Assembly (NCBI GenBank): GCA_021734995.1
Contig: JAIPHX010000003.1
Span: 75,969 to 139,968, forward strand
DNA: 64,000 bases
Source of the DNA: Minisyncoccota bacterium
GTDB lineage: Bacteria > Patescibacteriota > Minisyncoccia > Phycocordibacterales > UBA9973
Direction of reading: 5' to 3'
The notes below the pieces were generated by a model. The model did not search any database. It saw nothing but the letters and a program-made list of their open reading frames with translations, and was not told the DNA's origin. Each line of letters begins with the position of its first letter. The first letter of the stretch is position 1. Below, in pieces: positions 2,129-13,275 of this stretch. The translations under genes were made by a program, and so were the position numbers.

Positions 2129-2448
2129 TCGGGAGTAGCTCAGCGGTAGAGCGGTCGCCTGTGGAAATGTATTACGCAGCTTTCTATCTAAAGATAGATC
2201 GAAAACGAGGTGAATTCGGGGAAGCCCAATCTTATAACAAGAGGGTAATCCCGAGCCAAGCCCTTTAATAGGGAAGGTGTAGAGACTATCCTTTATGGAG
2301 TAGCTTCATAATTTATTTATGTTGCGAAGCGCCTCGCTTCTAAGTCTTGAGAGTAATCAAAAGATATGAAGATGATATAGTCCATACTTCTAGTAATAGA
2401 AGATAAAATGTAAGCGATTGGTCGTAGGTTCGATCCCTACCTCCCGAG
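2129..2448 (+). tRNA. tRNA-Asn(GUU) interrupted by a group I intron (exons 2129..2162 and 2411..2448)
   Basis: Exon 1 is tcgggag-ta-gctcagcggtagagc-g-gtcgc-cugu. Exon 2 is uaa-gcgat-tggtc-gtaggttcgatccctac-ctcccga-g. Acceptor stems are exactly complementary. The spliced anticodon loop is CUGUUAA, identical to the E. coli tRNA-Asn loop. Confidence 0.8.
2163..2410 (+). ncRNA. group I intron (IC3-like) in tRNA anticodon loop
   Basis: The intron follows an exon U that pairs in P1 (ctgt/gcag, U.G at the splice site) and ends with omega-G. Conserved core elements are present: gaattcggggaagcccaa (P/P3-P4), aatcccgagccaagcc (Q), gaaggtgtagagactatcc (R), gaagatgatatagtcc (S). These resemble the Azoarcus/Anabaena tRNA introns. 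Confidence 0.8.
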
Positions 2449-3993
2449 CAATGTTTTGTATTTAGTGCTATTTTTACTTTTTACCTTACTGGTATTAGGT
2501 TTTTTGAGTTCGAAGATTTGTTGAGCGTCAATTCGCTCTTGAATCCTCTTTGAAATCTTTTTTACCGAACTTTTCAATACTGTATTGGCTTTTTTGTCTT
2601 TTAATATCAAGTTCGAAAAAATATGAGATAAAAGCAGTCGGCGCTCCTCCGGACTTCTCTTTTCGTAAATTTCTCTGGCCCGGCGTGCTAGATCAAGGAT
2701 GTTGATGTAAAGCTCAAAGTATTTCGTCTCTTCATTTTTGAGCTTGGTTATTTTATTCTGAATTTCTGCTTGCTCGGCATTTATTTCTTTCTGTTTGCTT
2801 TCCCACTTTTCTGGAGTTATCTTTTCTGACAGTCGGTCGTTGTAGAGTATATCCAACTGCCTCTGTAATGAGTTATAGCGTTGATCCAGAGCTTTAAGAG
2901 TGTTTTCCTTGTATTCAGCTTCTAGCTTGTGATCAGCTTTAATTCTGTCTCGTATAATGTCCGCTTCTTTTTCAGTTATATTTTCAAAGAAACTAAATAC
3001 TCCCATTAAGGAAGTATCCAAATCCGTTTCCTTTGTCATCCCTTTTTGGGTGCATGGTCGGTTGTGCTTGCAGGAGTAGTAAATAGTTCCTTTCTGTATC
3101 TCGCCACTGATTGAGCCACCACACTCTCCGCACTCTATCATTTTACTGAATTGGAATGTATGTCTTTTGTAATGTGGAGATTTTCCGCGTGTTAGCGTAA
3201 ATTGAACCTTTTCAAATAATTCTTTGGATACTAGAGGGGCGTGAAGGCCATTCGTGTAGGTAATGTCATTCCACCTTATACTGCCCATATAGAATGGGTC
3301 GCGTAATATGTCCTCCAACCTGCTCTTTGAGAGCTTGCTACCATTCCGGGTCCTTAATCCATCTTCATACAGCTTTTCTCGCAGAGATATCAATGAATAG
3401 TTCCCGGTTGAGTAATACTCAAACGCTTTTCTCATAAACGGAGCTTTTGTCTCGTCAAACACATGGGTCTTGTGGCCCTTCTCGCCAACTGTTTTGTATC
3501 CAAGTGGTGGTTTGGCTGGAAGCCAACCCTGCGCAATTTTTTCCTTCTGACCTTTTTTCACTTCTTCAGAAAGATTTGAGATGTATTTTTTAGCAAGAAC
3601 TATTTCAATATCCCAACGAAATTTTTCATCTGATTTAGCATTTCTATGAATTACAAGATTTTGCTTCACAAAATGAATTTGTCTTTTTTCATCTGCTTCA
3701 ATCCAGTCATTAGCAACAACTGCTTCTTTTAGATTTCTAGTAAGACGATCAACTTTTTCACAAAGAAGAATTGGTATATTCTTCTTACTAATAAACTCAA
3801 TCATTTCTCCGAATATTTTTCTTTGCTTTGATCCACTAGCTGATTCAGCTATTGAAAAAACTTTTACAACATCAAACCCCTTACGAGTAGCATATTCTAC
3901 AAGTAATTTTTCTTGTGCCGGAAGAGAATAACCAGTTTCTTCTTGTTCTCTCGATGATACTCTGCAATAGATTACACATTTATTTTTTTCCAT
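2437..3993 (-). CDS. large serine recombinase (resolvase/invertase N-domain, recombinase domain, zinc ribbon)
   Basis: N-terminal VIYCRVSSREQ catalytic serine motif and VDRLTRN. Central recombinase domain. CGECGG...YYSC zinc ribbon. Coiled-coil C-terminus. The stop codon overlaps the 3' end of tRNA-Asn. Confidence 0.85.
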   Translation of the reverse strand: MEKNKCVIYCRVSSREQEETGYSLPAQEKLLVEYATRKGFDVVKVFSIAESASGSKQRKIFGEMIEFISKKNIPILLCEKVDRLTRNLKEAVVANDWIEADEKRQIHFVKQNLVIHRNAKSDEKFRWDIEIVLAKKYISNLSEEVKKGQKEKIAQGWLPAKPPLGYKTVGEKGHKTHVFDETKAPFMRKAFEYYSTGNYSLISLREKLYEDGLRTRNGSKLSKSRLEDILRDPFYMGSIRWNDITYTNGLHAPLVSKELFEKVQFTLTRGKSPHYKRHTFQFSKMIECGECGGSISGEIQKGTIYYSCKHNRPCTQKGMTKETDLDTSLMGVFSFFENITEKEADIIRDRIKADHKLEAEYKENTLKALDQRYNSLQRQLDILYNDRLSEKITPEKWESKQKEINAEQAEIQNKITKLKNEETKYFELYINILDLARRAREIYEKRSPEERRLLLSHIFSNLILKDKKANTVLKSSVKKISKRIQERIDAQQIFELKKPNTSKVKSKNSTKYKTLLGR

Positions 3994-4131
3994 GTTTTTA
4001 TATTATATCTTAAAACTAATAATTTCTTAAATTGAGAGAATGTTCTCTCTTGGTTTTATCTATGATGTATTCTCTGTATATAGTATTTATGCAAGAACCA
4101 GCAATCAGTTTGCTGAAATCAACAAACTAGT

Positions 4132-4509
4132 TTACCCATATAAACTTCTACCAGAAGCTTTTTCTAATAAAGGGAAAAGTTTTTCTTTATCAATGTGAAA
4201 ATGTCTTTTTCTTGGCATTCCTCTTGATTCTACTAATAAAATTCCTAATTCTTTCCATATTTTTATAGCCCTGTCTTGCTCACTCCTAGTCATGCCAGTT
4301 TCTTTTTTTATTTCATCTATAGTCTTATAAATCCAATCTCGATCATATCCCTTATGCCACCAAAATAATAATTGCGAAAGAAATAGTCCAGCAAGTGAAC
4401 TATTGGAAATACGAGCTAAAATGGGATTAAACGCTATTGGTTTTTCTCCTAATTTTTCAATAATTAAAGAATTAAAATTCTTATTTAGTTTTTTGTTCAG
4501 CTCATTCAT
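4132..4509 (-). CDS. putative phage-type DNA-binding/replication-associated protein
   Basis: Small basic protein with a winged-helix-like segment (GMTRSEQDRAIKIWKELGIL). It sits next to the recombinase. Family assignment is uncertain. Confidence 0.35.
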   Translation of the reverse strand: MNELNKKLNKNFNSLIIEKLGEKPIAFNPILARISNSSLAGLFLSQLLFWWHKGYDRDWIYKTIDEIKKETGMTRSEQDRAIKIWKELGILLVESRGMPRKRHFHIDKEKLFPLLEKASGRSLYG

Positions 4510-4517
4510 AAATTTTC

Positions 4518-4739
4518 TTAAATGTTAGAACCTAAAACTGGCCCTCTAGGAGCTGATACTAGGGGGTCAGTTTTAAGTGCCGACATTTCTTTTTGTTTAT
4601 CTTCATAATCAAATTTTGCTAGCAAATCAAAAAAGGAAGAGATGTCATCCAACTCAAAAATATCAAACTCTTCATTTGTTTGATTATTTAAGTTCATTGT
4701 TGAAATACCAAAGACATATTTTTTCAACTGTCTTTGCAA
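4518..4739 (-). CDS. hypothetical acidic small protein
   Basis: ORF only. It overlaps the 3' end of the RHH-like ORF 4684..4851 in another frame. The start may be the internal Met (MNLNNQ). Confidence 0.3.
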   Translation of the reverse strand: MQRQLKKYVFGISTMNLNNQTNEEFDIFELDDISSFFDLLAKFDYEDKQKEMSALKTDPLVSAPRGPVLGSNI

Positions 4740-4851
4740 TAGTGCGATTATCTTCTACGGCCTTTTTCAAAAGCTTTTGGTGAATATAAGAATCAACACG
4801 AATCTGTTTCGTTATTCTTTTTCTTTTTGCACGATAAATTATCTTTACCAT
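4684..4851 (-). CDS. ribbon-helix-helix (CopG/Arc-like) DNA-binding protein, 55 aa
   Basis: Not in the ORF track (below size cutoff). Reads MVKIIYRAKRKRITKQIRVDSYIHQKLLKKAVEDNRTIAKTVEKI. This fits the RHH pattern of a basic beta-strand (KQIRVD) followed by two helices. Confidence 0.5.
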   Translation of the reverse strand: MVKIIYRAKRKRITKQIRVDSYIHQKLLKKAVEDNRTIAKTVEKICLWYFNNELK

Positions 4852-4983
4852 GCTTTAAGGATAGCTTTTTGAAAGTCATGTATGTAGATACGATAGAAAA
4901 ATTAGTAAATTAAAAATACCTAACGATTTATTGGATATTCTAGTTAGTTTGAAAAGCTCTCCACCGTATTTTTAGCGTATATC

Positions 4984-5607
4984 TTATTTTACTTTATATA
5001 CATCAGTATTTATCTCATATCCACCGTGTTTATTTATTATTAGAGGTTCTTTCTTTAACAGTTCAAGTTTATTATAAGTTCTTTCATTTACTTCTTTTAC
5101 AGTTCTAGCCCAGTTGTTTTTACCGTCTCCCAGCTCTGATCTTTTTAATGGTTTAGGACTATTTTTTAATTTATCTATTAAATCAATAGGATATTTTTCA
5201 AATTTAAAATCACATATAAAGACTTTACCATCTTTGTTTCTTTTTAGAGTATTGTCTTCAAAATATAAAATTATCAAACTATCTTCTTCTAATTCATTTT
5301 TAAGAGTTTTTATTTTTTCTCTTGTAGACCATGTATCTAATCTCCTTAAAAAAATACTGTTTTTAGACAATTCATCATCAAAACCAACTCTATTTTTTAT
5401 AACTAAATTAGTTTTTTCAATTACTTCAGATAATTTTTTTATATCTGCAACACTCACACCATACGCCCCCATGGAAGAGAAAGGTATTTCTATATGTTCC
5501 GAAGGACTAGTTTCATTCTGATATTTTTCAATCATATCTATTGATTCTAATAATTTATCACAGTCAGTTTTTGTTAGTTTATTTTTATTAACAATTTTTG
5601 GTTCCAT
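4984..5607 (-). CDS. hypothetical protein (element cargo)
   Basis: 207-aa ORF with no recognisable motif. Lies inside the putative integrated element. Confidence 0.4.
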   Translation of the reverse strand: MEPKIVNKNKLTKTDCDKLLESIDMIEKYQNETSPSEHIEIPFSSMGAYGVSVADIKKLSEVIEKTNLVIKNRVGFDDELSKNSIFLRRLDTWSTREKIKTLKNELEEDSLIILYFEDNTLKRNKDGKVFICDFKFEKYPIDLIDKLKNSPKPLKRSELGDGKNNWARTVKEVNERTYNKLELLKKEPLIINKHGGYEINTDVYKVK

Positions 5608-5995
5608 AATAAATATAATCTCATTTTTTTACGCTTTTGTCGACAATTTATTCTCCTATAACACCCCTTAAAATGCGACCATTTGCTCCACATATTTTCT
5701 TACGATTTCCTATGTGAAGAAAATACTTATTTTTTATTAAAAAATCATAATATGATATCAAACAAATAACTCGATAAATAAAGAATTTTTTGATCACACA
5801 ATCCCTCTTTATGCGACCTTTTGCGACCATATCAGACCCCACGTTTTCCCCCTATTTCCACCCATCATTATCAGACATTTTCAGATATCATGTTTCCGAC
5901 CATTTCCGCCGATATACTTTATTGTATTTGTCGACAAAAAGAGCTATTATAAAAATACAACGCCTAAACCAGAAATGGCATGGCTACATAAGAAT

Positions 5996-6041
5996 CCCAC
6001 GCAAATAGTAATGGCCTCATAGTCATCACCATTTGCGTGGG
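5996..6041. promoter_or_regulatory. 11-bp perfect inverted repeat cccacgcaaat / atttgcgtggg (24-bp spacer)
   Basis: Seen directly. A third copy of cccacgcaaa sits at 6137..6146, abutting the ATG of the 6147 gene. A second hairpin gtatcctc-gaaa-gaggatac is at 6064..6083. Confidence 0.5.
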
Positions 6042-6146
6042 TCCATATTCGAAAGAGTATGGGGTATCCTCGAAAGAGGATACCAGATGGTCTGTGAGGC
6101 CTTTACTGTTTTCACAACCATATTATAAATTAAAAACCCACGCAAA

Positions 6147-7100
6147 ATGAAAAAAATACAAATAGTTTTTTTGTTTATTTTTTGCCTTTTTTCTTTTAAT
6201 GCAGTTCATGCAGAAACTTTAATTATCAAATCGGTAGAAAAAAGAATTGAAGATATTGAAAAAATGAGAGAAAAATTAGATAAAGACAATGAGACAAATT
6301 ACAAACAACTCCAAGCCGAACTTAAAAGTTTAAGTGCTCAAATAGATAGTAATATAAAAAGTAATTTTACTTGTGTTCAGCCGGTTGCTATGTGTGATGA
6401 ATCTACTTACCAAAGAATAAGAGGAATCGCTATATCAAATGGTCTTACCCCAGACGCCATCGAACTTGCTCAATGCAGAGCCAAGATCGATGAGTATAAT
6501 CAAAAACTTCAAGAATATAATATATGTTTTCTAAATTGGCAAAATAAAAAGATTGAGGATTCAGCACAAATAGAATATAAAAATCAATTACAAATTTATG
6601 AATTAAAAGCAGAACTTTGGTGTATTGATAAAGAGGGATATTATTCTTCTTACAACAAAAACACTAAAGAATGTGAATGTGTAGAGGGTTCAACTTTTAT
6701 CAATGGAAAATGTAAAAGCAATCTAGAGAATCTTCTTTTTTGTGCCAAAAACTTTGGCTCATTATCTTACAGTGATGAAAAAGGAGCATGTGCATGTGAA
6801 GATGGAAGTCAGTTTGATTGGAATAATAATGGTCTTTGCACTAAAAAAGAAAGATCAGTAACTGAAAACAAGTATATCCCTATTAAAGAGCGTCAAGATA
6901 TCAAAACAGCAATTATCCCATCTTCAGAAGTAAAAGCCCCGGAAATCGCAAAAACAAGGGAGGAATTACCTTCTAAAAGTGAAGTAATCCCAGAGACACC
7001 CTTACCTGTGTCTATTTCTAATACACCAGACAACAAAATACCTCAAACTACCTTTTGGAAGAAATTAAAAATTAGCATATCCAAACTTAAGTTTTGGTAG
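6147..7100 (+). CDS. secreted Cys-rich protein with N-terminal coiled coil and Pro/Thr-rich tail
   Basis: Signal peptide MKKIQIVFLFIFCLFSFNAVHA, more than 14 Cys in the central region, PETPLPVSISNTPDN tail. Confidence 0.5.
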   Translation: MKKIQIVFLFIFCLFSFNAVHAETLIIKSVEKRIEDIEKMREKLDKDNETNYKQLQAELKSLSAQIDSNIKSNFTCVQPVAMCDESTYQRIRGIAISNGLTPDAIELAQCRAKIDEYNQKLQEYNICFLNWQNKKIEDSAQIEYKNQLQIYELKAELWCIDKEGYYSSYNKNTKECECVEGSTFINGKCKSNLENLLFCAKNFGSLSYSDEKGACACEDGSQFDWNNNGLCTKKERSVTENKYIPIKERQDIKTAIIPSSEVKAPEIAKTREELPSKSEVIPETPLPVSISNTPDNKIPQTTFWKKLKISISKLKFW

Positions 7101-7107
7101 AATTTTT

Positions 7108-7371
7108 ATGCAAATAAATTTATTATTTTGGGTATTTATATTGATTACTTTCACTGGAACATCTCTATATTATTTAGGTAAGACAAAAAGAGGTAATCAA
7201 AGTGAAGTTATTAAATTTTCTGGTGGAATTATTACATTTGGCATTTTGATTACTTCTTTCTTTTTCTTGGGGTGGAAAATTGCTATTTTGTTAATCATTA
7301 TAGAATTTACAATTATTAGTTTTGTTTCTGCTTTTTTGATTGAATCTATTATGAAAAAGCGTATTAAATAA
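7108..7371 (+). CDS. small membrane protein
   Basis: Three predicted TM segments. No homology recognised. Confidence 0.4.
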   Translation: MQINLLFWVFILITFTGTSLYYLGKTKRGNQSEVIKFSGGIITFGILITSFFFLGWKIAILLIIIEFTIISFVSAFLIESIMKKRIK

Positions 7372-7389
7372 TTTATTTATAAAAGTTTT

Positions 7390-7818
7390 ATGGATAAAGA
7401 TATAGAAAAATTAAAATTATTAACAATAAACATGCTTCAAGAAACACAAAATAATGACATGGAACACAAACAACAATTAAAAAATTTAGTAATAAGTATT
7501 TTATTAACCCTTTTGCCGATTCTGATATTTATGCTAATTCCCAGTATGGGAAATAAATACTTTGATATGTTTTCCGGTAGAATAATGTATATTAGCTCTG
7601 ATCATTTCTTTTCTTTTTCACCAATCTTTGTTTTGAATTTACTGTATTTTCTACCACCAATAATCTGGATCTTTTCAATATGGTTTTGTCTTAAAATTAG
7701 AAGAGGAATACAAGACCGAAAATCATTTTTTAACTATTTCAATTTAATTTTAATTGTTTTAGGTAGTGTTGAACTCTTATATTCTTTATGGTTTTTATAT
7801 AGGTATTATTTACTGTAA
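7390..7818 (+). CDS. membrane protein
   Basis: Multiple hydrophobic helices. No homology recognised. Confidence 0.4.
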   Translation: MDKDIEKLKLLTINMLQETQNNDMEHKQQLKNLVISILLTLLPILIFMLIPSMGNKYFDMFSGRIMYISSDHFFSFSPIFVLNLLYFLPPIIWIFSIWFCLKIRRGIQDRKSFFNYFNLILIVLGSVELLYSLWFLYRYYLL

Positions 7819-7902
7819 ATGTGCTAGAATAAACTTATATCAGAAAATATTAGGTATCTATTTTGAGATTGGATATCTTTTTGGTTTTATTTTGAAAATG
7901 AG

Positions 7903-9468
7903 ATGAAAATAAAGAAAATACAACTTATAAATTTTAAGAGATTTGATGATTTGACAATTGATTTAGGGAATATGCCTAAAAAGATTATTGCTTTAGTCGG
8001 CCCCAATGGATCAGGAAAAAGTTCGGTTTTTGATGCATTTGAAGAAAAACTTAAAAACTATAAGGGGACACATCAACAAGAACACGCTTCTTTTTTTGCT
8101 AAACTTTATTTTTCGATTTTTCCTGAAAAGAAAAGTGAATCTTATAATAAAGAAAATTCTATAAAAATAGAAAATGACAATAATAATGAATTTAATAAAA
8201 AAAGTTTTTACATAAGAACAGCCTATCGATTTACTTCAAGATTACAGGTAGATAATTTGAGAAAATTACCTGATGTGATTGATGATGTTAATAGGCCTTA
8301 TAGCTCAAATGCTATGGATAATAGATTGCAGGAAAATTATGAACGGATGTTAAGTAAAGCCTTTCAAGAATTTTTTAATGACACTTCTGGCAAGACGGGT
8401 TTAGTAACAAGAAAGGAACTTATTGATAAAATCAATAATATTTTAGGTAATATTTTAGATATTAAAATATCAAACATTGGTGATGTAACTCAAGGAAAAG
8501 GGCAATTGTTCTTTGAAAAAGAAAGTTCAAAAGATTTTCCTTTTGAAAATCTATCTTCTGGTGAAAAAGAGGTGGTAGATATTATTATAGATTTAATTAT
8601 AAAAACCCCAGAATATGATAACACTGTTTATGCTATAGATGAGCCTGAATTACATCTTAATACTAGCATTCAAAGAAAATTATTGATTGAAATTGAAAAA
8701 CTTATTCCTGATAATTGTCAGATATGGGTAGCGACACACAGTGTGGGATTTTTAAGATCCTTACAAGAAGAACTAAAAGAAAAATCCCAAATAATTGATT
8801 TTTCAGAAAAAGATTGTTTTAATGGAACTCAAACTGCTTACCCAATCAAAACAACTAGACAAAACTGGCAAAGAATTTTTCAAACTGCCCTAGAAGACCT
8901 CACTGGATTAGTAGCTCCAGAAGTAATAATTTATTGTGAGGGTAGACCGGACCCAACAAATTCAGGAGGAGAACAAGGGTTAGACGCAAGTATTTATAAC
9001 TTAATTTTTGGAGAAACTAACCATAATACATTATTTGTCTCGAGTGGAGGAAATGATGTAATTGCTAATTCTACCCTAGCATTAAAAATAATAACTAAAG
9101 CATTTACTAAAGTAAAATTATTTCTACTTAAGGATCGTGACGATCTAACTGAGCAGGAAAGAATCGATTTTCTTGGTGCTTCAAGTAGTAATAAGATGTT
9201 GGAAAGAAGAGAAATAGAAAATTATGTTTTTGACTATGAGATACTAAATGCCTACGCAGTTTCAATAAGTAATAATATAAATAAAACGGATTATGATAAA
9301 ATTGTAACTGATATAGAAAATCAAGATCTTAAATTAGGAACTACTATGGTGGATTTACAAAAATTAGTAAATGGTAAAGGTTCTTTGGAGAGTTTCAAAA
9401 TAGAGTTGTCAAAATTCATAATTCCTACCACAGAAGTATATAAAAGACTTTACACAGTAATTTTTTAA
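7903..9468 (+). CDS. OLD/PARIS-like ABC ATPase fused to Toprim/DUF4435-like domain
   Basis: N-terminal IKKIQLINFKRF. Walker A GPNGSGKSS, signature-like LSSGEKE, Walker B VYAIDEPELHLN (the DEPExHLHP hallmark of AAA_21/OLD), H-loop ATHS. The C-terminus carries a Toprim-like Glu (IIYCEG), DxD (LKDRDDL) and a terminal EIENYV. Confidence 0.65.
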   Translation: MKIKKIQLINFKRFDDLTIDLGNMPKKIIALVGPNGSGKSSVFDAFEEKLKNYKGTHQQEHASFFAKLYFSIFPEKKSESYNKENSIKIENDNNNEFNKKSFYIRTAYRFTSRLQVDNLRKLPDVIDDVNRPYSSNAMDNRLQENYERMLSKAFQEFFNDTSGKTGLVTRKELIDKINNILGNILDIKISNIGDVTQGKGQLFFEKESSKDFPFENLSSGEKEVVDIIIDLIIKTPEYDNTVYAIDEPELHLNTSIQRKLLIEIEKLIPDNCQIWVATHSVGFLRSLQEELKEKSQIIDFSEKDCFNGTQTAYPIKTTRQNWQRIFQTALEDLTGLVAPEVIIYCEGRPDPTNSGGEQGLDASIYNLIFGETNHNTLFVSSGGNDVIANSTLALKIITKAFTKVKLFLLKDRDDLTEQERIDFLGASSSNKMLERREIENYVFDYEILNAYAVSISNNINKTDYDKIVTDIENQDLKLGTTMVDLQKLVNGKGSLESFKIELSKFIIPTTEVYKRLYTVIF

Positions 9469-9470
9469 TT

Positions 9471-10499
9471 ATGGCATATCCACTTATAATTTTTGGAGCA
9501 GGAGCATCTCATGATTTTTCACCCTTAGGGAAAATGGCCCCTCTTACTAATGATCTCGCAGAAGATCAATTTATTCATTCTGGATTTCTTGAAAAATACA
9601 AAGGGGCAGGAAATTTATTAGTAGAAATAATCAATCAAGTAAAAAGTCGCAAAAGAAATTTTGAAGAAGTTTTGACTGAAATACAGAATGATTCCATAAA
9701 ATCTGAGGCTATGCGAAGACGATTCGTAGATTTTGAATTTTATTTAAGAGATTTGTTTTCTTATATTTCAAAACCACATGACTTAAATCGTAAAATACAT
9801 CAAGCTAATAATTATCATGCAATAATAAATCGCATTGATACTTATACAAACGGGAAAGCGTTAATAGCAACATTTAATTATGATTCTTTATTTGAAAATA
9901 GTCTTAGCTCCTTAAAACCAAAAAACATGAGAGATTATATTTCAAGTGATATTAAAATTATTAAATTGCATGGTTCTCATGATTGGGGTTATATTAGAAG
10001 AACATCAGAAATGGAAAGAAAGCATCTTGGTATAAAAGATGGCTATGAACTTTCCATAAAAGAACCTGACATTCTTAAGGAAATTAAAGAGGGTAAATAT
10101 GACCCATATCATATTCAAGAAATAGAAGAAAATGCTGAAAAAAATGATTTTAACTCATTTCCTGCTATAGCTATTCCTTTGATAGGGAAAGATAAATATG
10201 TATGTCCGACTCAACATATTAAAGTTTTTGAACAACATTTACCACAGATAGATAGAGTTTTAATTGTTGGTTGGAGAGCAGAAGATCCATTACTACTTGA
10301 AACACTGAAAAATAATTTACCAAAAGAAGGAGGATATAAAGTTCTTGTTGTTTCTTGGACACTTGAAGGGGCTCAAAAAATAGCCAAGAAAGTTAAAGAA
10401 GGTCTTGGTATTCTTAATGATTTTTATGTTCAAGCCAGAGGAAATGGTTTTTCAACATTTATGGCGGATGAAGCTTCAAAGATTTTTTTCTCTCAATAA
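9471..10499 (+). CDS. SIR2-like (SIR2_2/DHS-like NAD-binding) domain protein
   Basis: LIIFGAGASHDF at the N-terminus. ATFNYDSLFE and IIKLHGSHDW match the TTNYD...KLHGS hallmarks of defence-associated SIR2_2 domains. Starts 3 nt after the ATPase gene. Confidence 0.6.
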   Translation: MAYPLIIFGAGASHDFSPLGKMAPLTNDLAEDQFIHSGFLEKYKGAGNLLVEIINQVKSRKRNFEEVLTEIQNDSIKSEAMRRRFVDFEFYLRDLFSYISKPHDLNRKIHQANNYHAIINRIDTYTNGKALIATFNYDSLFENSLSSLKPKNMRDYISSDIKIIKLHGSHDWGYIRRTSEMERKHLGIKDGYELSIKEPDILKEIKEGKYDPYHIQEIEENAEKNDFNSFPAIAIPLIGKDKYVCPTQHIKVFEQHLPQIDRVLIVGWRAEDPLLLETLKNNLPKEGGYKVLVVSWTLEGAQKIAKKVKEGLGILNDFYVQARGNGFSTFMADEASKIFFSQ

Positions 10500-10504
10500 T
10501 TATT

Positions 10505-10942
10505 ATGAAAACAATTATACAAATTTTAATAATTTCATTTTTAATTATTCCTAATTTTTCATTTGCTCATCCGGGCCGAACAGATTCTTCTGGTTGTCAT
10601 ACTTGTCGGACAAATTGTTCTAATTGGGGATTATCTACGGGTGAGTATCATTGTCATAATGCTAAAGCATTGCCACAACCAGAAGAGCCAATTAAAAGCA
10701 CTTATGGAGAAAACGGGACCGGATACACAACACTAGCACCGGAGTATAAGATTCCAGCAACACCTAAAAAAGTAATTCCAAAAGTTGTTGAACAAAAACC
10801 TGTTTCTACTACGCCCATAAACAAAATTGAAACATCACAAAATACAAAAATAGAAACTCCCGCTCCTTATCCAGTTCCAATACAAACCCCAGAACCTGTT
10901 AAGAAAAAAAGTTTCTGGTCAAAGATATTTTGGTTTTGGTAA
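10505..10942 (+). CDS. secreted protein with YHYH-like Cys/His motif
   Basis: Signal peptide. HPGRTDSSGCHTCRTNC...GEYHCHN resembles the HPGxxDxxGGH...YHYH domain. Pro-rich C-terminus. Confidence 0.4.
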   Translation: MKTIIQILIISFLIIPNFSFAHPGRTDSSGCHTCRTNCSNWGLSTGEYHCHNAKALPQPEEPIKSTYGENGTGYTTLAPEYKIPATPKKVIPKVVEQKPVSTTPINKIETSQNTKIETPAPYPVPIQTPEPVKKKSFWSKIFWFW

Positions 10943-10951
10943 ATAATTTTT

Positions 10952-11581
10952 ATGACAGCTAAAGATCATGTAAAAGAATGGTTAGATAGTATCTCTAAAC
11001 GAGGTGGCTATATAGAAAAACAAGAAATTATTTTTCTAATGGTTCAAGCACGACACTTAATCGAAAACCACCCCAATATCTCTAAATATAGAACAATTGA
11101 ATTTTATAGTAATTGGGTAGTTCATACTCAACTGGATAGACCATCAGAAGTGAGTTTATCTATATTTCGAGACATCACAAAAATACTTTCAGCTAATTGG
11201 AATCCTACTGACCCAGAAATGGGAAATCAAATATCAAAAGTAATTGGCCTTTCCACTTTAAGAACTGAACTTGTCTCTTTATTTCAAGAGAATAATCTTA
11301 ATGTTGAACTTTTTAGTATTTATGAAAATTGGAAAAATATCGCAGTATTTTTGATTTACTTTTTGCAAAATAAACCATTGGTATTTCCTAAAACTACAAA
11401 AAATAAGTTTAAGCTCCTTATTGAAGAAATAATGAATCTTAAGAAACCGGCTGACTTTTGGATAAAAAACTTATCTATAATCGGGATAGATAATCGTCCC
11501 CATTGGTGCTTTGAATTAGGGGGTGAAAAAAATACTACGAAAATTATTGGAGAACTATTTATTGAAAAAGACCCTGCTTAA
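10952..11581 (+). CDS. hypothetical protein
   Basis: 209-aa ORF with no motif. It is the last gene before the first cassette-boundary repeat. Confidence 0.4.
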   Translation: MTAKDHVKEWLDSISKRGGYIEKQEIIFLMVQARHLIENHPNISKYRTIEFYSNWVVHTQLDRPSEVSLSIFRDITKILSANWNPTDPEMGNQISKVIGLSTLRTELVSLFQENNLNVELFSIYENWKNIAVFLIYFLQNKPLVFPKTTKNKFKLLIEEIMNLKKPADFWIKNLSIIGIDNRPHWCFELGGEKNTTKIIGELFIEKDPA

Positions 11582-11649
11582 TTAAACAAAAGAGATTTAA
11601 TTTCTGCTAGTGCAATACTAGGGAAAGGATATTCATTTAGCCAATCTAT

Positions 11650-11738
11650 CGTTCGAAAGTCATCCACCAAAGCGAGCCATCAAAAAACAGCTCAAATACT
11701 GGGCTGTTTTTTTGTTACCCCAATAGGGTTCAGAACTC
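11650..11738 (+). repeat. cassette-boundary repeat copy R0 (degenerate, contains terminator hairpin)
   Basis: cgttcgaaagtcatccaccaaagcgagcca ... agggttcagaactc. The embedded hairpin aacagc-tcaaatactgg-gctgtt plus T7 (11686..11713) is followed by tttgttataat and the ATG at 11751. Confidence 0.6.
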
Positions 11739-11750
11739 AAATTTGTTATA

Positions 11751-12461
11751 ATGGTAGTAATGAAAAAGATTATTATCTATTTTTTATCGGCAATACTCAT
11801 TCTCGTAGTTTGTGGATATGGACTGCTTCAAATCAGTAAATCACGCACTTTTCAATTTTTCGGCAGTATCGTAAACCGAGTTGATACTGAAGAAAAAGTT
11901 ATTGCCCTCACATTTGATGACGGACCAGAGACACACACGAATGAGATACTGGATGTACTGCAGGAAAAGCAAATAAAAGCCACATTTTATGTGATTGGTG
12001 AAAGATTGCAGGAAAACTTAGAGATTGGACAGCGTATTACTGATGAGGGACACGAACTTGGCAACCATTCGTACACGCATCAGAGATTTTTATTCAAACC
12101 TCTATCTTTTATAGATAGTGAAATTCAAAATACAAATCAACTTATCCGAGAAGCAGGATATGAAGGAGCTATAACATTCCGCCCTCCTTATGGAAAAAAG
12201 CTTCTGGGACTTCCTTGGTATCTAAATAAACACAACATTGAAACTATTATGGTTGATGTTGAACCTGATACTTATGGCACAACGTCGGACTTCTTTGTTG
12301 AATATACGATTGCAAATACAAAAGCTGGCTCTATTATACTTCTTCACCCATTTTGTGAGACCTGTAGTGAACAAAGAAAAGCTGTTCCGCTAATAATAGA
12401 TGCACTGAAGGAAAAGGGTTATACATTTGTTACGGTTTCTGAATTGCTTTCCAGAAGATAA
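11751..12461 (+). CDS. polysaccharide deacetylase (NodB homology domain)
   Basis: TFDDGPETHT...GNHSYTHQ motifs of carbohydrate esterase family 4. N-terminal TM anchor. Confidence 0.75.
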   Translation: MVVMKKIIIYFLSAILILVVCGYGLLQISKSRTFQFFGSIVNRVDTEEKVIALTFDDGPETHTNEILDVLQEKQIKATFYVIGERLQENLEIGQRITDEGHELGNHSYTHQRFLFKPLSFIDSEIQNTNQLIREAGYEGAITFRPPYGKKLLGLPWYLNKHNIETIMVDVEPDTYGTTSDFFVEYTIANTKAGSIILLHPFCETCSEQRKAVPLIIDALKEKGYTFVTVSELLSRR

Positions 12462-12538
12462 ATCACTTAGCTAAAGCTATAAGATTATTGATTGTATTCA
12501 AATGATATTCAGGATCGGGATATAAAGTAGCCCAGTCA

Positions 12539-12648
12539 AAAGTTCGAAATGCACACCTCCATTCGAGCAAAATAAAACGTAGAGAATACGCTGATACATA
12601 TAGAGTTAAAAGTGTGAAATATCCTACCTGTGAACAGGGTTCGAACTT
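12539..12648 (+). repeat. cassette-boundary repeat copy R1 (variant 5' half)
   Basis: aagttcgaaatgcacacctccattcgagcaaaat ... cagggttcgaactttt. It shares a ~70-bp upstream extension (gatattcaggatc...) with copy 13201..13275. Confidence 0.65.
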
Positions 12649-13143
12649 TTACAATAACTTCCTAACTCTTTCAGTAAATGTATTCATATGGTAATGAAGT
12701 GGAAAAGGTACAAGCACTCCATTGTTTACAACGTTGAACCCGTCCTCGAGGAGAGGTTTTTCTAATAATCTACAAATGTTAGATTTGACTAAAATGATAG
12801 GTATCTGTTTGTCGCCTATAATAGATCGCAAATCATTCTTGAAGTTTTCGTAATTAGACAAAATAAGTTTGTCCGCTTCTTTATCTGAGAGTTTATTAAC
12901 CGGGGTGTAAATTGGATTAACTAACAAATATCCCTTACTAGCCAATTTCTTCAAACCCTCATCTTTGTTGGTGGGAGAGAAATCTATAACGGCTTTCATA
13001 AAGGCACGAAACAATACTTCCGAAACACGTCCACTTGGATCGTAAAAATAACCGTGACCTGCTGGCGGGGACTCTAATACAAAAATAGCCTTAATCTTTT
13101 TAGGTAGATATTTATTCCGTAGAGAAACATAGTCCGTGTCCAT
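12649..13143 (-). CDS. hypothetical protein (inverted cassette)
   Basis: 164-aa ORF on the opposite strand to most cassettes. No motif recognised. Confidence 0.45.
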   Translation of the reverse strand: MDTDYVSLRNKYLPKKIKAIFVLESPPAGHGYFYDPSGRVSEVLFRAFMKAVIDFSPTNKDEGLKKLASKGYLLVNPIYTPVNKLSDKEADKLILSNYENFKNDLRSIIGDKQIPIILVKSNICRLLEKPLLEDGFNVVNNGVLVPFPLHYHMNTFTERVRKLL

Positions 13144-13200
13144 ATAAGTATTATATAAAAATTAGCGTGCCAAAGCGATTAGTCTGTCGATTTGCCCTAA

Positions 13201-13275
13201 GTGATATTCAGGATCTGTGTATACACCAACCCAATCAAAAGTTCGAAATGCGTCCCTCCACTCGAGCCAACAAAT
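13201..13275 (+). repeat. cassette-boundary repeat, 5' half-copy
   Basis: gtgatattcaggatctgtgtatacaccaacccaatcaaaagttcgaaatgcgtccctccactcgagcc. No 3' GTTCGAACC partner. Confidence 0.55.

Follow-up and report, generated by a model that had tools for sequence, protein, structure and literature searches.

A 9,228-bp mobile element is integrated at the end of a tRNA-Asn gene in a tiny candidate-phyla-radiation (CPR) bacterium, and its attachment site lies inside its own serine integrase gene. Insertion therefore cuts off the last 31 amino acids of the enzyme and leaves them at the far end of the element, a layout that recurs across many related genomes. The window, i.e. the whole stretch of DNA that was analysed, comprises 64,000 nucleotides of contig JAIPHX010000003.1 from a Minisyncoccota bacterium. 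The preliminary description of this region had reported a 518-aa large serine recombinase (LSR) gene ending within the last 12 nt of a tRNA-Asn gene on the opposite strand, and this observation was confirmed. Its reading as a small element of about 3.2 kb was only partly supported by the analysis. The features that define the integration site are as follows.

2129..2162, plus strand: exon 1 of the host tRNA-Asn(GUU)
2163..2410, plus strand: group I intron in the anticodon loop of tRNA-Asn, belonging to the host and not to the element
2411..2448, plus strand: exon 2 of tRNA-Asn, whose T-arm and acceptor 3' strand form the inferred B half-site of attB (now in attL), with the T-loop GTTCGAT at 2428-2434
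2446..2449: attL common core GAGC (GCTC on the LSR strand)
2437..3993, minus strand: LSR in its integrated (truncated) form, 518 aa, with the last two codons (G, R) and the stop read from antisense tRNA
11578..11676, minus strand: displaced 3' end of the LSR gene (the tail), L-ALVDDFRTIDWLNEYPFPSIALAEIKSLLFN followed by a stop, which also forms the inferred P half-site of attP, with the T-loop mimic GTTCGAA (codons F-R-T)
11674..11677: attR common core GAGC, the right end of the element

The sequence GGTTCGATCCCTACCTCCCGAG occurs once, at 2427-2448, and is the 3' end of a real tRNA-Asn(GUU), which places the LSR stop codon (2437-2439) 12 nt inside the tRNA. ARAGORN does not call this tRNA because its anticodon loop is interrupted by a group I intron (Rfam RF00028, 85.9 bits, E 3e-21). 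Joining 2129-2162 to 2411-2448 yields an ARAGORN tRNA-Asn gtt of 72 nt, with U at the exon end and G at the intron end. The same intron is present in the LSR-adjacent tRNA-Asn of six homologous loci (L004, L006, L013, L021, L032 and L049; L numbers denote the loci and contigs compared). The recombinase showed the Pfam domains Resolvase (1.2e-20), Recombinase (6.7e-16) and Zn_ribbon_recom, the last with a score of 23.9 bits that is just below its cutoff of 25.3 bits, and it has more than 1800 homologues. The LSR stop lies inside a tRNA 3' end in 57 of 77 homologous loci spanning 43-89% identity, a geometry far beyond chance. Most of these tRNAs are tRNA-Asn, but Gln, Leu, Tyr, Val, Arg and Lys tRNAs are found as well.

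The right boundary of the element was then investigated. A search for a second copy of the tRNA 3' end, which had been proposed beforehand as the signature of attR, found none in the 64 kb, where nothing reaches 23/38 identity. The element does not reconstitute the tRNA end, as the preliminary description had suggested, and attL and attR share only the block CGAGC (2445-2449 and 11673-11677), which on its own would not be convincing. The far end is instead marked by the displaced C-terminal coding segment of the recombinase gene, which lay beyond what the preliminary description could have seen. A conserved segment at 11588-11688 starts at GCTCG and continues the LSR frame for 31 codons, and homology with L003-L006 starts exactly at the attR core. 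The integrated gene ends ...KYKTLL-GR before its stop, whereas the unsplit homologue P0113 ends LLALVDDFRTINWAHEYPYPSIELKQIKLLLS. Further unsplit genes were found in the homologue hit list (P0087, P0027 and P0072) and on the contigs L082 and L083, although the latter two show no terminal overlap and are thus not demonstrably circular. The four nucleotides GAGC are the minimal identity shared by attL, attR, the empty attB and unsplit attP across the Asn-targeting loci, and must contain the 2-bp crossover.

Orphan tails are widespread. Hits with a tail HMM (E 1e-11 to 1e-20) occur in about 45 loci, 5.5-11.5 kb upstream of the LSR on the same strand and preceded by GCTCG. The tails are under purifying selection, with pN/pS of 0.23 overall and about 0.07 for the closest pairs, pS being near 0.7; for the window tail, pN/pS is 0.05/0.70 against L003 and L004. 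Body and tail identities correlate across 31 loci (rho 0.74), a value reached in 0 of 2000 permutations, as expected for one gene. Two LSR-less remnant units adjoin the right end of the element at 11678..13266, each ending in an orphan tail of a different clade that is preceded by GCTCG (tail HMM E 1.9e-16 and 4e-17).

11751-12461: unit 1, polysaccharide deacetylase
12463-12567, minus strand: unit 1, tail2
12649-13143: unit 2, orf164
13162-13266, minus strand: unit 2, tail3

An empty site was found at L131, where the flank joins the tRNA directly; the same flank joins the tail in L028 and L031, and homology breaks exactly at GCTC. No empty site was found for the window's own species, and the attR flank of the window is another remnant rather than the original host flank. 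The T-loop motif lies 15 nt from GCTC on the tRNA side in 39 loci, and 20 nt from GCTC on the tail side in 26 loci. This matches the 5-bp shift of the zinc-ribbon-domain motif between attB and attP in PMC3783163. Members of the family on tRNA-Tyr and tRNA-Lys have cores that match their own tRNA, with the same 15/20 spacing. The other two half-sites, on the LSR-body side and in the host flank, showed no clear conserved motif.

Between these ends, the element carries a core module, a control region, a structured RNA and variable cargo.

4132..4509, minus strand: RepO/DnaD-like winged-helix protein, 125 aa (replication-initiator-like or DNA-binding)
4518..4739, minus strand: small acidic ORF (73 aa as an ORF; called as 59 aa, 4518-4697)
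4684..4851, minus strand: Arc/CopG-like ribbon-helix-helix (RHH) regulator, 55 aa (weak assignment)
4984..5607, minus strand: hypothetical protein, 207 aa, first gene of the leftward core module
5608..5955: divergent control region with short repeats (possible iterons or operators)
5956..6110, plus strand: LOOT RNA with its own terminator at 6089-6101
6136..6146, plus strand: copy of the LOOT P2 5' arm (ACCCACGCAAA) immediately before the orf317 start codon
6147..7818, plus strand: cargo, a secreted 317-aa protein and two small membrane proteins (6147-7100, 7108-7371, 7390-7818)
7903..9468, plus strand: cargo, defence-type ABC/AAA ATPase, 521 aa
9471..10499, plus strand: cargo, SIR2-like protein, 342 aa (weak assignment), probable partner of the ATPase
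10505..11581, plus strand: cargo, 145-aa secreted protein and 209-aa hypothetical protein

The genes next to the LSR are as given in the preliminary description, namely a winged-helix protein, an RHH protein and two proteins without a database match. The winged-helix protein matched phrog_9773 (6.2e-23) and phrog_6493 (2e-10) and has homologues in L003, L006, L040 and L060. The small acidic ORF, without any Pfam or PHROG match, is the most widely conserved accessory gene, with tblastn hits in 20 loci at a fixed position 0.5-0.8 kb upstream of the LSR. It is a candidate recombination directionality factor (RDF), a role that is inferred only. The RHH protein matched the Arc-like repressor phrog_582 weakly (E 0.0025) and has a homologue in L010, as has the 207-aa protein (32% identity), which gave no family hits. 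The 539-bp gap at 5608-6146 holds short repeats, a GCGACC(A/T)TTTGC-like motif at 5673, 5811, 5820 and 5894, and the palindrome TTTGTCGACAA at 5636 and 5927. However, the gap is not simply non-coding, because the cccacgcaaa palindrome noted previously is helix P2 (5996-6005 / 6032-6041) of a LOOT RNA (RF03000, 67.6 bits), a hallmark of these elements. A covariance model built in this study found this RNA in about 44 of 87 sources, inside the elements, with 96.6% of cells paired and compensatory changes in 21 of 22 pairs. The copy of the P2 5' arm before orf317 is complementary to the P2 3' arm. Such a copy of at least 9 nt, matching the element's own arm, is present in 12 of 43 elements, against 0 of 43 in the upstream control.

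The cargo is mosaic, which speaks for mobility. The block 6147-7818 is shared with L010 at 56-70% identity, and orf145 has homologues in L006 and L035. The ATPase matched Pfam AAA_21 (3.9e-20) and AAA_15 as well as PADLOC AriAB (2e-35) and PtuA (7e-26). The assignment of the SIR2-like protein rests on Pfam SIR2_2 at E 0.001, below the cutoff, and PADLOC SIR2 at 4e-4. A 52%-identical homologue lies inside the L009 element.

Taken together, window 2446-11677 is with high confidence an integrative element of a large family found in Patescibacteria (CPR) genomes, inserted at the extreme 3' end of the host tRNA-Asn(GUU) gene by its own LSR. The analysis shows that attP lies inside the LSR gene, at the boundary between a disordered basic linker and the 31-aa C-terminal tail, and that integration splits the gene. 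The body of 516 codons becomes fused to antisense tRNA sequence, which supplies two codons and a TAG stop from the T-stem, and the tail is left 9.2 kb away at attR. Excision, or tandem insertion, would restore a 547-aa protein across the predicted attP junction (…CAAAACATTGCTCGCTTTGGTGGATG…). The presence of the motif GTTCGA(A/T) 15 nt from the core in the tRNA T-arm and 20 nt from it in the tail-coding DNA is likewise shown. By contrast, it is inferred from the published LSR model that these are the B-type and P-type half-sites, with the motif as the zinc-ribbon-domain contact. In this view the crossover lies within the 4-bp core, at the discriminator and acceptor end of the tRNA, so the tRNA stays intact and no long repeat is made. 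The LOOT P2 helix can pair alternatively with the start region of the first cargo gene; this is a pairing potential seen in sequence. That the tail makes the enzyme depend on the state of the element, with the full-length form made only from the circle and the truncated form only from the integrated copy, is an inference without direct support. The canonical LSR domains end before the tail, and AlphaFold2 predicts a disordered linker at 490-509 followed by three short helices, but confidence in the tail structure is modest (pLDDT 60-68) and few sequences cover the tail in the alignment. No direct evidence of excision was obtained, and the reconstructed unsplit proteins of this element and seven relatives are absent from the 15-billion-protein collection that was searched.

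That no excised form was found leads to the question whether the copy in the window is an immobilised or domesticated remnant, whose LSR is kept next to tRNA-Asn by vertical inheritance and which no longer excises. The neighbouring LSR-less remnants, the streamlining of CPR genomes and the unusually high conservation of the LSR family, at about 60% identity across classes, would fit this reading. It is nevertheless unlikely. The LSR, core and cognate tail are all intact, the tail type matches the closest LSR relatives, cargo differs even between LSRs that are 76-87% identical, and unoccupied tRNA-Asn sites exist in CPR-like contigs. It is also unlikely that the orphan tail is conserved only as DNA, as an attP/attR binding site with no role as protein and an incidental reading frame. 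The most conserved codons (F-R-T) do coincide with the T-loop-mimic motif TTCGAAC, and an LSR half-site is about 25 bp long (PMC3783163). However, conservation extends about 95 nt, well beyond such a half-site, and synonymous sites are near saturation (pS about 0.76) while pN is 0.17. In addition, the frame is open to a stop at a conserved position in 26 or more loci, unsplit genes translate the same peptide, and tail and body co-diverge.

A prophage or phage satellite with a serine integrase is a still more doubtful reading. Serine integrases are typical of temperate phages, the RepO-like protein and the Arc-like repressor are phage-type genes, and five distant relatives lie on IMG/VR contigs. 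On the other hand, no capsid, terminase, portal, tail or lysis family was found among 10 cargo proteins in PHROGs, the element is only 9.2 kb, the viral collection holds only relatives at 43% identity or less, and the cargo consists of defence and surface proteins. The preliminary description was correct in proposing an integrative element driven by an LSR at the tRNA-Asn 3' end. The recombinase is not a transposon resolvase, and the gene order is not fixed across relatives. The proposed extent of the element, about 3.2 kb (2437-5640), with a right boundary near 5640, 5931 or the palindrome, is contradicted, although the core module (LSR, RepO-like, RHH) does lie within 2437-5607, because nothing in 5600-6150 resembles the attL core plus a half-site, the repeats and the palindrome belong to an internal control region and the LOOT RNA, the displaced LSR end lies at 11578-11676, element sizes in relatives are 5.5-11.5 kb, and the block 6147-7818 travels with the LSR and LOOT in L010.

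The large serine integrases of phages and ICEs (A118/LI, phiC31, Bxb1, TP901-1, SPbeta SprA) share with this enzyme the three-domain structure of Resolvase, Recombinase and a zinc ribbon with a coiled coil, a short common core without long direct repeats, and attB and attP half-sites carrying the same distal motif offset by 5 bp, as modelled for LI integrase (PMC3783163). In the present element, the target is the 3' end of a tRNA gene rather than a protein-coding gene or intergenic site, and the distal motif is the universal tRNA T-loop, which would explain easy retargeting between tRNAs. Furthermore, attP lies inside the integrase gene, so the C terminus of the enzyme differs between the integrated and excised states, there is an extra C-terminal tail on a flexible linker, and the hosts are CPR bacteria. 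In SSV1-type archaeal integrases, attP also lies inside the integrase ORF, and integration into a tRNA gene partitions the gene, which excision restores. Those enzymes are tyrosine recombinases of archaeal viruses and plasmids, however, and their gene is cut roughly in the middle, which inactivates it, whereas here a serine recombinase loses only a 31-aa tail outside all catalytic and DNA-binding domains.

The tRNA-integrating genomic islands with tyrosine integrases (Islander/TIGER type; tycheposons) likewise insert site-specifically at a tRNA 3' end and leave the tRNA functional, with tandem accretion of remnants and defence or adaptive cargo in streamlined genomes. Their integrase family differs, and they duplicate 15-50 nt or more of the tRNA as a direct repeat, whereas this element shares only 4-5 nt and marks its far end with the displaced end of its integrase gene. 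Tn4451, with its recombinase TnpX, is a serine-recombinase element whose circular form re-creates a gene-expression feature across the joint, but there the joint rebuilds a promoter for tnpX, not coding sequence, and target specificity is low. The LOOT RNA of the window scores above the gathering threshold of RF03000 and has the same multi-hairpin fold. Rfam lists LOOT as an sRNA gene, and it is not known to have been assigned an organism or function beyond its occurrence in metagenomic sequence. Here it is placed inside LSR elements of Patescibacteria, next to the core module, with pairing potential to the downstream start codon region.

The preliminary description had noted that a gene for a large serine recombinase (LSR) ends within the 3' end of a tRNA-Asn gene on the opposite strand, and this observation was confirmed. 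The 518-aa ORF has its stop codon 12 nt inside the sequence GGTTCGATCCCTACCTCCCGAG (2427-2448), which is unique in the window. ARAGORN reports no tRNA at this position, and the reason is a group I intron (Rfam RF00028, 85.9 bits against a gathering score of 50) in the anticodon loop. Joining 2129-2162 to 2411-2448 yields a 72-nt tRNA-Asn(GUU), and this junction (2162/2411) is the only one that places U at the exon end, before the 5' splice site, and G at the intron 3' end. A tRNA-His reading of the split gene (junction 2163/2412) was rejected, since it violates the U/G splice-site rule and since a G discriminator fits Asn better than His. The predicted intron sits inside the anticodon, between U35 and U36, and the same intron is present in the LSR-adjacent tRNA-Asn of at least six other CPR genomes (loci L004, L006, L013, L021, L032, and L049). 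It lies outside the att site and seems unrelated to the element. The features discussed below are as follows.

2129-2162 and 2411-2448: exons of tRNA-Asn(GUU)
2163-2410: group I intron (RF00028)
2437-3993, minus strand: LSR, 518 aa in the integrated form
2446-2449: core GAGC at the tRNA end
5636 and 5927: two copies of the palindrome TTTGTCGACAA
5673-5907: four copies of a GCGACC(A/T)TTTGC-like motif
5956-6146: LOOT RNA (RF03000) and the region up to the next start codon
6136-6146: copy of the LOOT P2 5' arm, directly before the orf317 start codon
7903-10499: AriAB/PtuA-like ABC ATPase and weakly SIR2-like protein
11588-11688: conserved segment with the displaced end of the LSR gene
11674-11677: core GAGC at the far end (attR)
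11678-13266: two LSR-less units, with orphan tails at 12463-12567 and 13162-13266

To assess whether the enzyme is a large serine integrase, its domains were compared with Pfam families, homologues, and solved structures. The N-terminal resolvase-type catalytic domain (PF00239, 74.5 bits, E 1.2e-20) aligns to the TP901-1 integrase catalytic domain (3bvp), and R11, V12, and S13, which include the catalytic serine, are invariant in 16 homologues. The recombinase domain (PF07508, 58.8 bits) aligns to the A118 integrase C-terminal domain (4kis/6dnw) over residues 180-360. The zinc-ribbon family PF13408 scores 23.9 bits, just under its cutoff of 25.3, although many homologues carry the precomputed hit; Cys-288, Cys-291, Cys-308, and Cys-314 are invariant, and AlphaFold2 predicts long paired helices at 337-441.

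The preliminary description had proposed that a second partial copy of the tRNA 3' end would mark attR. A pattern search with 3 mismatches, k-mers, an ungapped scan, and blastn-short all failed to find such a copy, and nothing else in 64 kb reaches 23/38 identity. The idea that the element duplicates the tRNA end was therefore rejected. Direct repeats of 15-20 nt were found in seven relatives, but their reading as attR was also ruled out, because they turned out to be a displaced tRNA fragment in an older flank segment 110-210 nt outside the true junction. This flank of ~200 nt (L131 5876-6089, L028 3691-3907, and L031 1178-1355) is conserved at 75-80% between genomes, starts with a displaced tRNA-Asn 3' fragment (GCTCCGGGGGTAGGGT), and ends in an inverted copy of the tRNA end that forms a terminator-like hairpin with it. 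It is probably an older remnant.

The question was then whether the geometry recurs in related genomes. The LSR has more than 1,800 homologues at 55-89% identity in Parcubacteria and Paceibacteria. Among 79 loci taken from species-representative genomes, the LSR stop falls inside the 3' end of an oppositely oriented tRNA in 57 of the 77 loci where it can be placed. Of these, 32 are intact tRNA-Asn, 15 are tRNA halves that ARAGORN misses, like that of the window, and the other 10 are Gln, Leu, Tyr, Val, Arg, or Lys. Relatives of this LSR at 45-52% identity occur on contigs binned as Nanoarchaeia, Methanoperedens, Methanodesulfokora, Pseudomonadota, Omnitrophota, and Thermotogales (L030, L033, L042, L041, L050, L058, L069, and L081), which reflects either binning errors or a host range beyond CPR.

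The four closest loci share with the window a ~95-nt DNA segment at 11588-11688. In the alignment the conservation begins exactly at GCTCG, the reverse complement of the tRNA end CGAGC. Read in the LSR frame after ...KYKTLL, the segment encodes ALVDDFRTIDWLNEYPFPSIALAEIKSLLFN followed by a stop. Thus, attP lies inside the LSR gene, and integration splits it. The integrated gene ends LL-GR-stop, with the last codons and the TAG read from the antisense tRNA acceptor and T stems, whereas the 31-codon tail sits at the other end of the element. Measured core to core, the element is 9,228 bp long. The common core comprises 4-5 nt (GCTC / CGAGC), which is compatible with recombination at a 2-bp crossover within a short common core. 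The predicted attP junction reads ...AAATACAAAACATTGCTCGCTTTGGTGGATGACTTTCGAAC... and the predicted attB junction ...GATCCCTACCTCCCGAGCCATCAAAAAACAGCTC... A weak Rfam hit to RNAI at 11632-11715 corresponds to the tail/attR segment plus a terminator and is not an RNA I.

Six independent lines support the split-gene reading. First, a profile of tails finds orphan tail fragments in about 45 loci, 5.5-11.5 kb upstream of the LSR on the same strand, nearly all preceded by GCTCG. Second, the tails evolve as protein, with pS of about 0.76 and pN of 0.17 overall, and pS of about 0.70 and pN of 0.05 against the closest relatives. Third, tail and body identities are correlated across 31 loci (Spearman rho 0.74, 0 of 2000 permutations as high), and the tails are therefore the cognate ends of the resident genes, not debris from other copies. 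Fourth, unsplit genes exist; the homologue P0113 (543 aa) ends LLALVDDFRTINWAHEYPYPSIELKQIKLLLS, and other clades have their own tails (proteins P0027, P0087, and P0072; loci L028, L042, and L069), the unsplit tail of L042 lying on one of the contigs binned outside CPR. Fifth, an empty site exists. In the metagenome contig L131 the ~200-nt flank runs straight into the tRNA-Asn 3' end, whereas in the occupied loci L028 and L031 the same flank runs into the tail, and homology switches exactly after GCTC. This was shown for relatives; for the window's own species no empty site was found; a metagenome scan with the tRNA T-arm mostly returned unrelated high-GC bacteria. Sixth, members that target tRNA-Tyr (L052) and tRNA-Lys (L071) have cores that match their own tRNA ends, CTTGTGC and GTCCGC.

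In an attempt to find an excised form, several searches were performed, and none revealed one. The exact unsplit proteins reconstructed for eight elements are absent from the protein collection searched, and the contigs L082 and L083, which carry unsplit genes, show no terminal overlap and are thus not demonstrably circular. A tail-profile search of 5.8 billion proteins returned only 14 short fragments and no new full-length forms.

The sequences suggest how the sites are read. On the tRNA side, the T-loop motif (xTCGAAC on the LSR strand) lies 15 nt from GCTC in 39 loci. On the tail side, the same motif, encoded by the conserved F-R-T codons, lies 20 nt from GCTC in 26 loci, and the same spacing holds for the Tyr- and Lys-targeting members. 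Rutherford et al. showed for the Listeria integrase that the zinc-ribbon-domain motif sits 5 bp closer to the center in attB than in attP, and that this offset underlies site identity and directionality (PMC3783163). We therefore infer that the tRNA T-arm and acceptor form the B half-site and the tail-coding DNA the P half-site, and that use of the universal T-loop would explain why the family moves between tRNA species. No clear motifs were found in the other two half-sites.

The tail lies outside the canonical enzyme. Solved LSR structures align only to residues 4-115 and 180-360. An AlphaFold2 model of unsplit P0113 gives confident catalytic, recombinase, zinc-ribbon, and coiled-coil regions, whereas residues 490-509 are predicted to form a disordered basic linker (pLDDT below 50), followed by three short helices for the tail (pLDDT 60-68). 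The breakpoint falls at the linker-tail boundary, and the integrated 518-aa form thus keeps the whole known architecture.

The leftward core module holds a 207-aa protein, an Arc-like RHH protein (a weak assignment), a small acidic ORF conserved in about 20 loci that is a candidate directionality factor, a RepO/DnaD-like winged-helix protein (phrog_9773, 6e-23), and the LSR. A 539-bp gap contains a LOOT RNA with its own terminator and, in the divergent region between the core module and LOOT, the four GCGACC(A/T)TTTGC-like motifs and two palindromes, which could be iterons or operators for the RepO-like or RHH protein. The rightward cargo comprises secreted and membrane proteins, an AriAB/PtuA-like ATPase, a weakly SIR2-like neighbor, and two proteins with no database match. 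The ATPase hits AriAB (PARIS) at 2e-35 and PtuA (Septu) at 7e-26 in PADLOC, and is followed 3 nt later by the SIR2-like protein, a weak match (E 4e-4) that is neither AriB nor PtuB; the pair is a possible two-gene defense system. A homologue of the SIR2-like gene sits in the element at locus L009. Cargo is mosaic between relatives, and only locus L010 shares a larger block. Outside the element, the 107-aa ORF at 1191-1514, which starts inside tRNA-Ala (1176-1251), looks like a spurious extension, as the MAG annotation calls only an 86-aa gene there (L001 12480-12740).

LOOT RNA is a hallmark of the family. The window copy scores 67.6 bits against a gathering score of 46.4. A covariance model built from 12 copies finds LOOT in about 44 of 87 sources, inside the elements and usually antisense to the LSR and 1-5 kb upstream of it, and Rfam's own model confirms five copies at gathering score. 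The fold is strongly supported, with 96.6% of cells paired and 21 of 22 pairs showing compensatory changes across 43 copies. In 12 of 43 elements, an exact copy of at least 9 nt of the element's own P2 5' arm lies 14-50 nt downstream of LOOT and 0-8 nt before an ATG, whereas the upstream control gave 0 of 43. In the window this copy is ACCCACGCAAA at 6136-6146. The P2 3' arm could therefore pair with the start region instead, suggesting a leader-type switch that could control translation of the first cargo gene.

Beyond attR follow two further intact tails of another clade (EWRDAFRTFDW type), each preceded by GCTCG and each closing a 0.7-0.9-kb unit with one gene and no LSR. They may be remnants of earlier insertions or mini-elements mobilized in trans. 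Several relatives also have multiple tails or tandem copies (L003 and L028). In L003 (1291-2940) a second LSR copy lies directly upstream of the resident element's tail and shares the last 19 nt before the core, which looks like a tandem array in which the older LSR body is fused to the newer element's tail. On the 1.5-kb metagenome contig L165 (682-1393), a tail plus its neighboring gene, homologous to L014 3367-3964, abut the tRNA-Asn 3' end in inverted orientation, which could be an inversion at the near-palindromic GAGC/GCTC core or an assembly chimera.

Taken together, the preliminary interpretation of an integrative element whose attachment site reconstitutes a tRNA 3' end is supported only in part. 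The feature is a real 9.2-kb LSR element, judged from sequence to be probably active, whose integrase gene is split by integration. The position of attP within the gene, the displaced cognate tail, and the recurrence of this layout were shown by the analysis, whereas the half-site assignments, a crossover within the core and catalysis, splicing of the intron, and any role of the tail or of the alternative LOOT pairing are inferred. A mainly phage origin was rejected, since a PHROGs scan of 10 element proteins found only replication-initiator-like, Arc-like, and ATPase families and no virion structural or packaging genes, and the viral collection returned only 5 distant hits.

A further, tentative reading, which we consider less likely than not, is that the gene split is a built-in state sensor. 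Only the excised circle can encode the full-length enzyme with its tethered 31-aa tail, and only the integrated copy encodes the tail-less enzyme. The two forms would then differ in reaction preference, for example if the tail were required for attP x attB synapsis or blocked the directionality factor, and directionality would be set partly by the topology of the element's own gene rather than by a separate factor alone. In the same view, recognition of the universal tRNA T-loop would let the family hop between tRNA genes by changing only a few core-proximal bases. Because the C terminus of the enzyme depends on whether the element is integrated (547 or 518 aa), the family offers a natural experiment on directionality control in serine integrases, an active structural topic. 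Patescibacteria have almost no genetic tools, and a compact integrase with predictable attP and attB sites at a conserved tRNA is a candidate tool. The results also give LOOT RNA a genomic home and a testable regulatory hypothesis, and show that intron-split tRNAs hide integration sites from standard tRNA finders.

Serine integrases are described as inserting within protein-coding genes, and tRNA 3' ends as the territory of tyrosine integrases (PMC5704250; PMC4383910). The large LSR survey by Durrant et al. does not mention tRNA, and no report of an LSR gene that spans attP, or of tRNA-targeting LSRs in CPR, was found, although absence from the literature searched does not prove novelty. The present family breaks the described target rule, and the inferred sequence logic, a T-loop motif at attB spacing in the tRNA and at attP spacing in the integrase gene's own tail, would explain how. 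With tRNA-integrating genomic islands of the tyrosine-integrase type the element shares neither the integrase, as its only recombinase is a serine recombinase, nor the direct repeat formed by a displaced tRNA 3' fragment at the distal end. The 5-bp displacement of a distal motif between attP and attB half-sites is as in the published model for serine integrases (PMC3783163). SSV-type archaeal tyrosine integrases have been reviewed (PMC8371274). They are the closest analogue in arrangement, with attP within the integrase ORF, so that integration partitions the gene. This is an analogy of arrangement only, since the enzyme is not a tyrosine recombinase and the element is thus not a member of that family.
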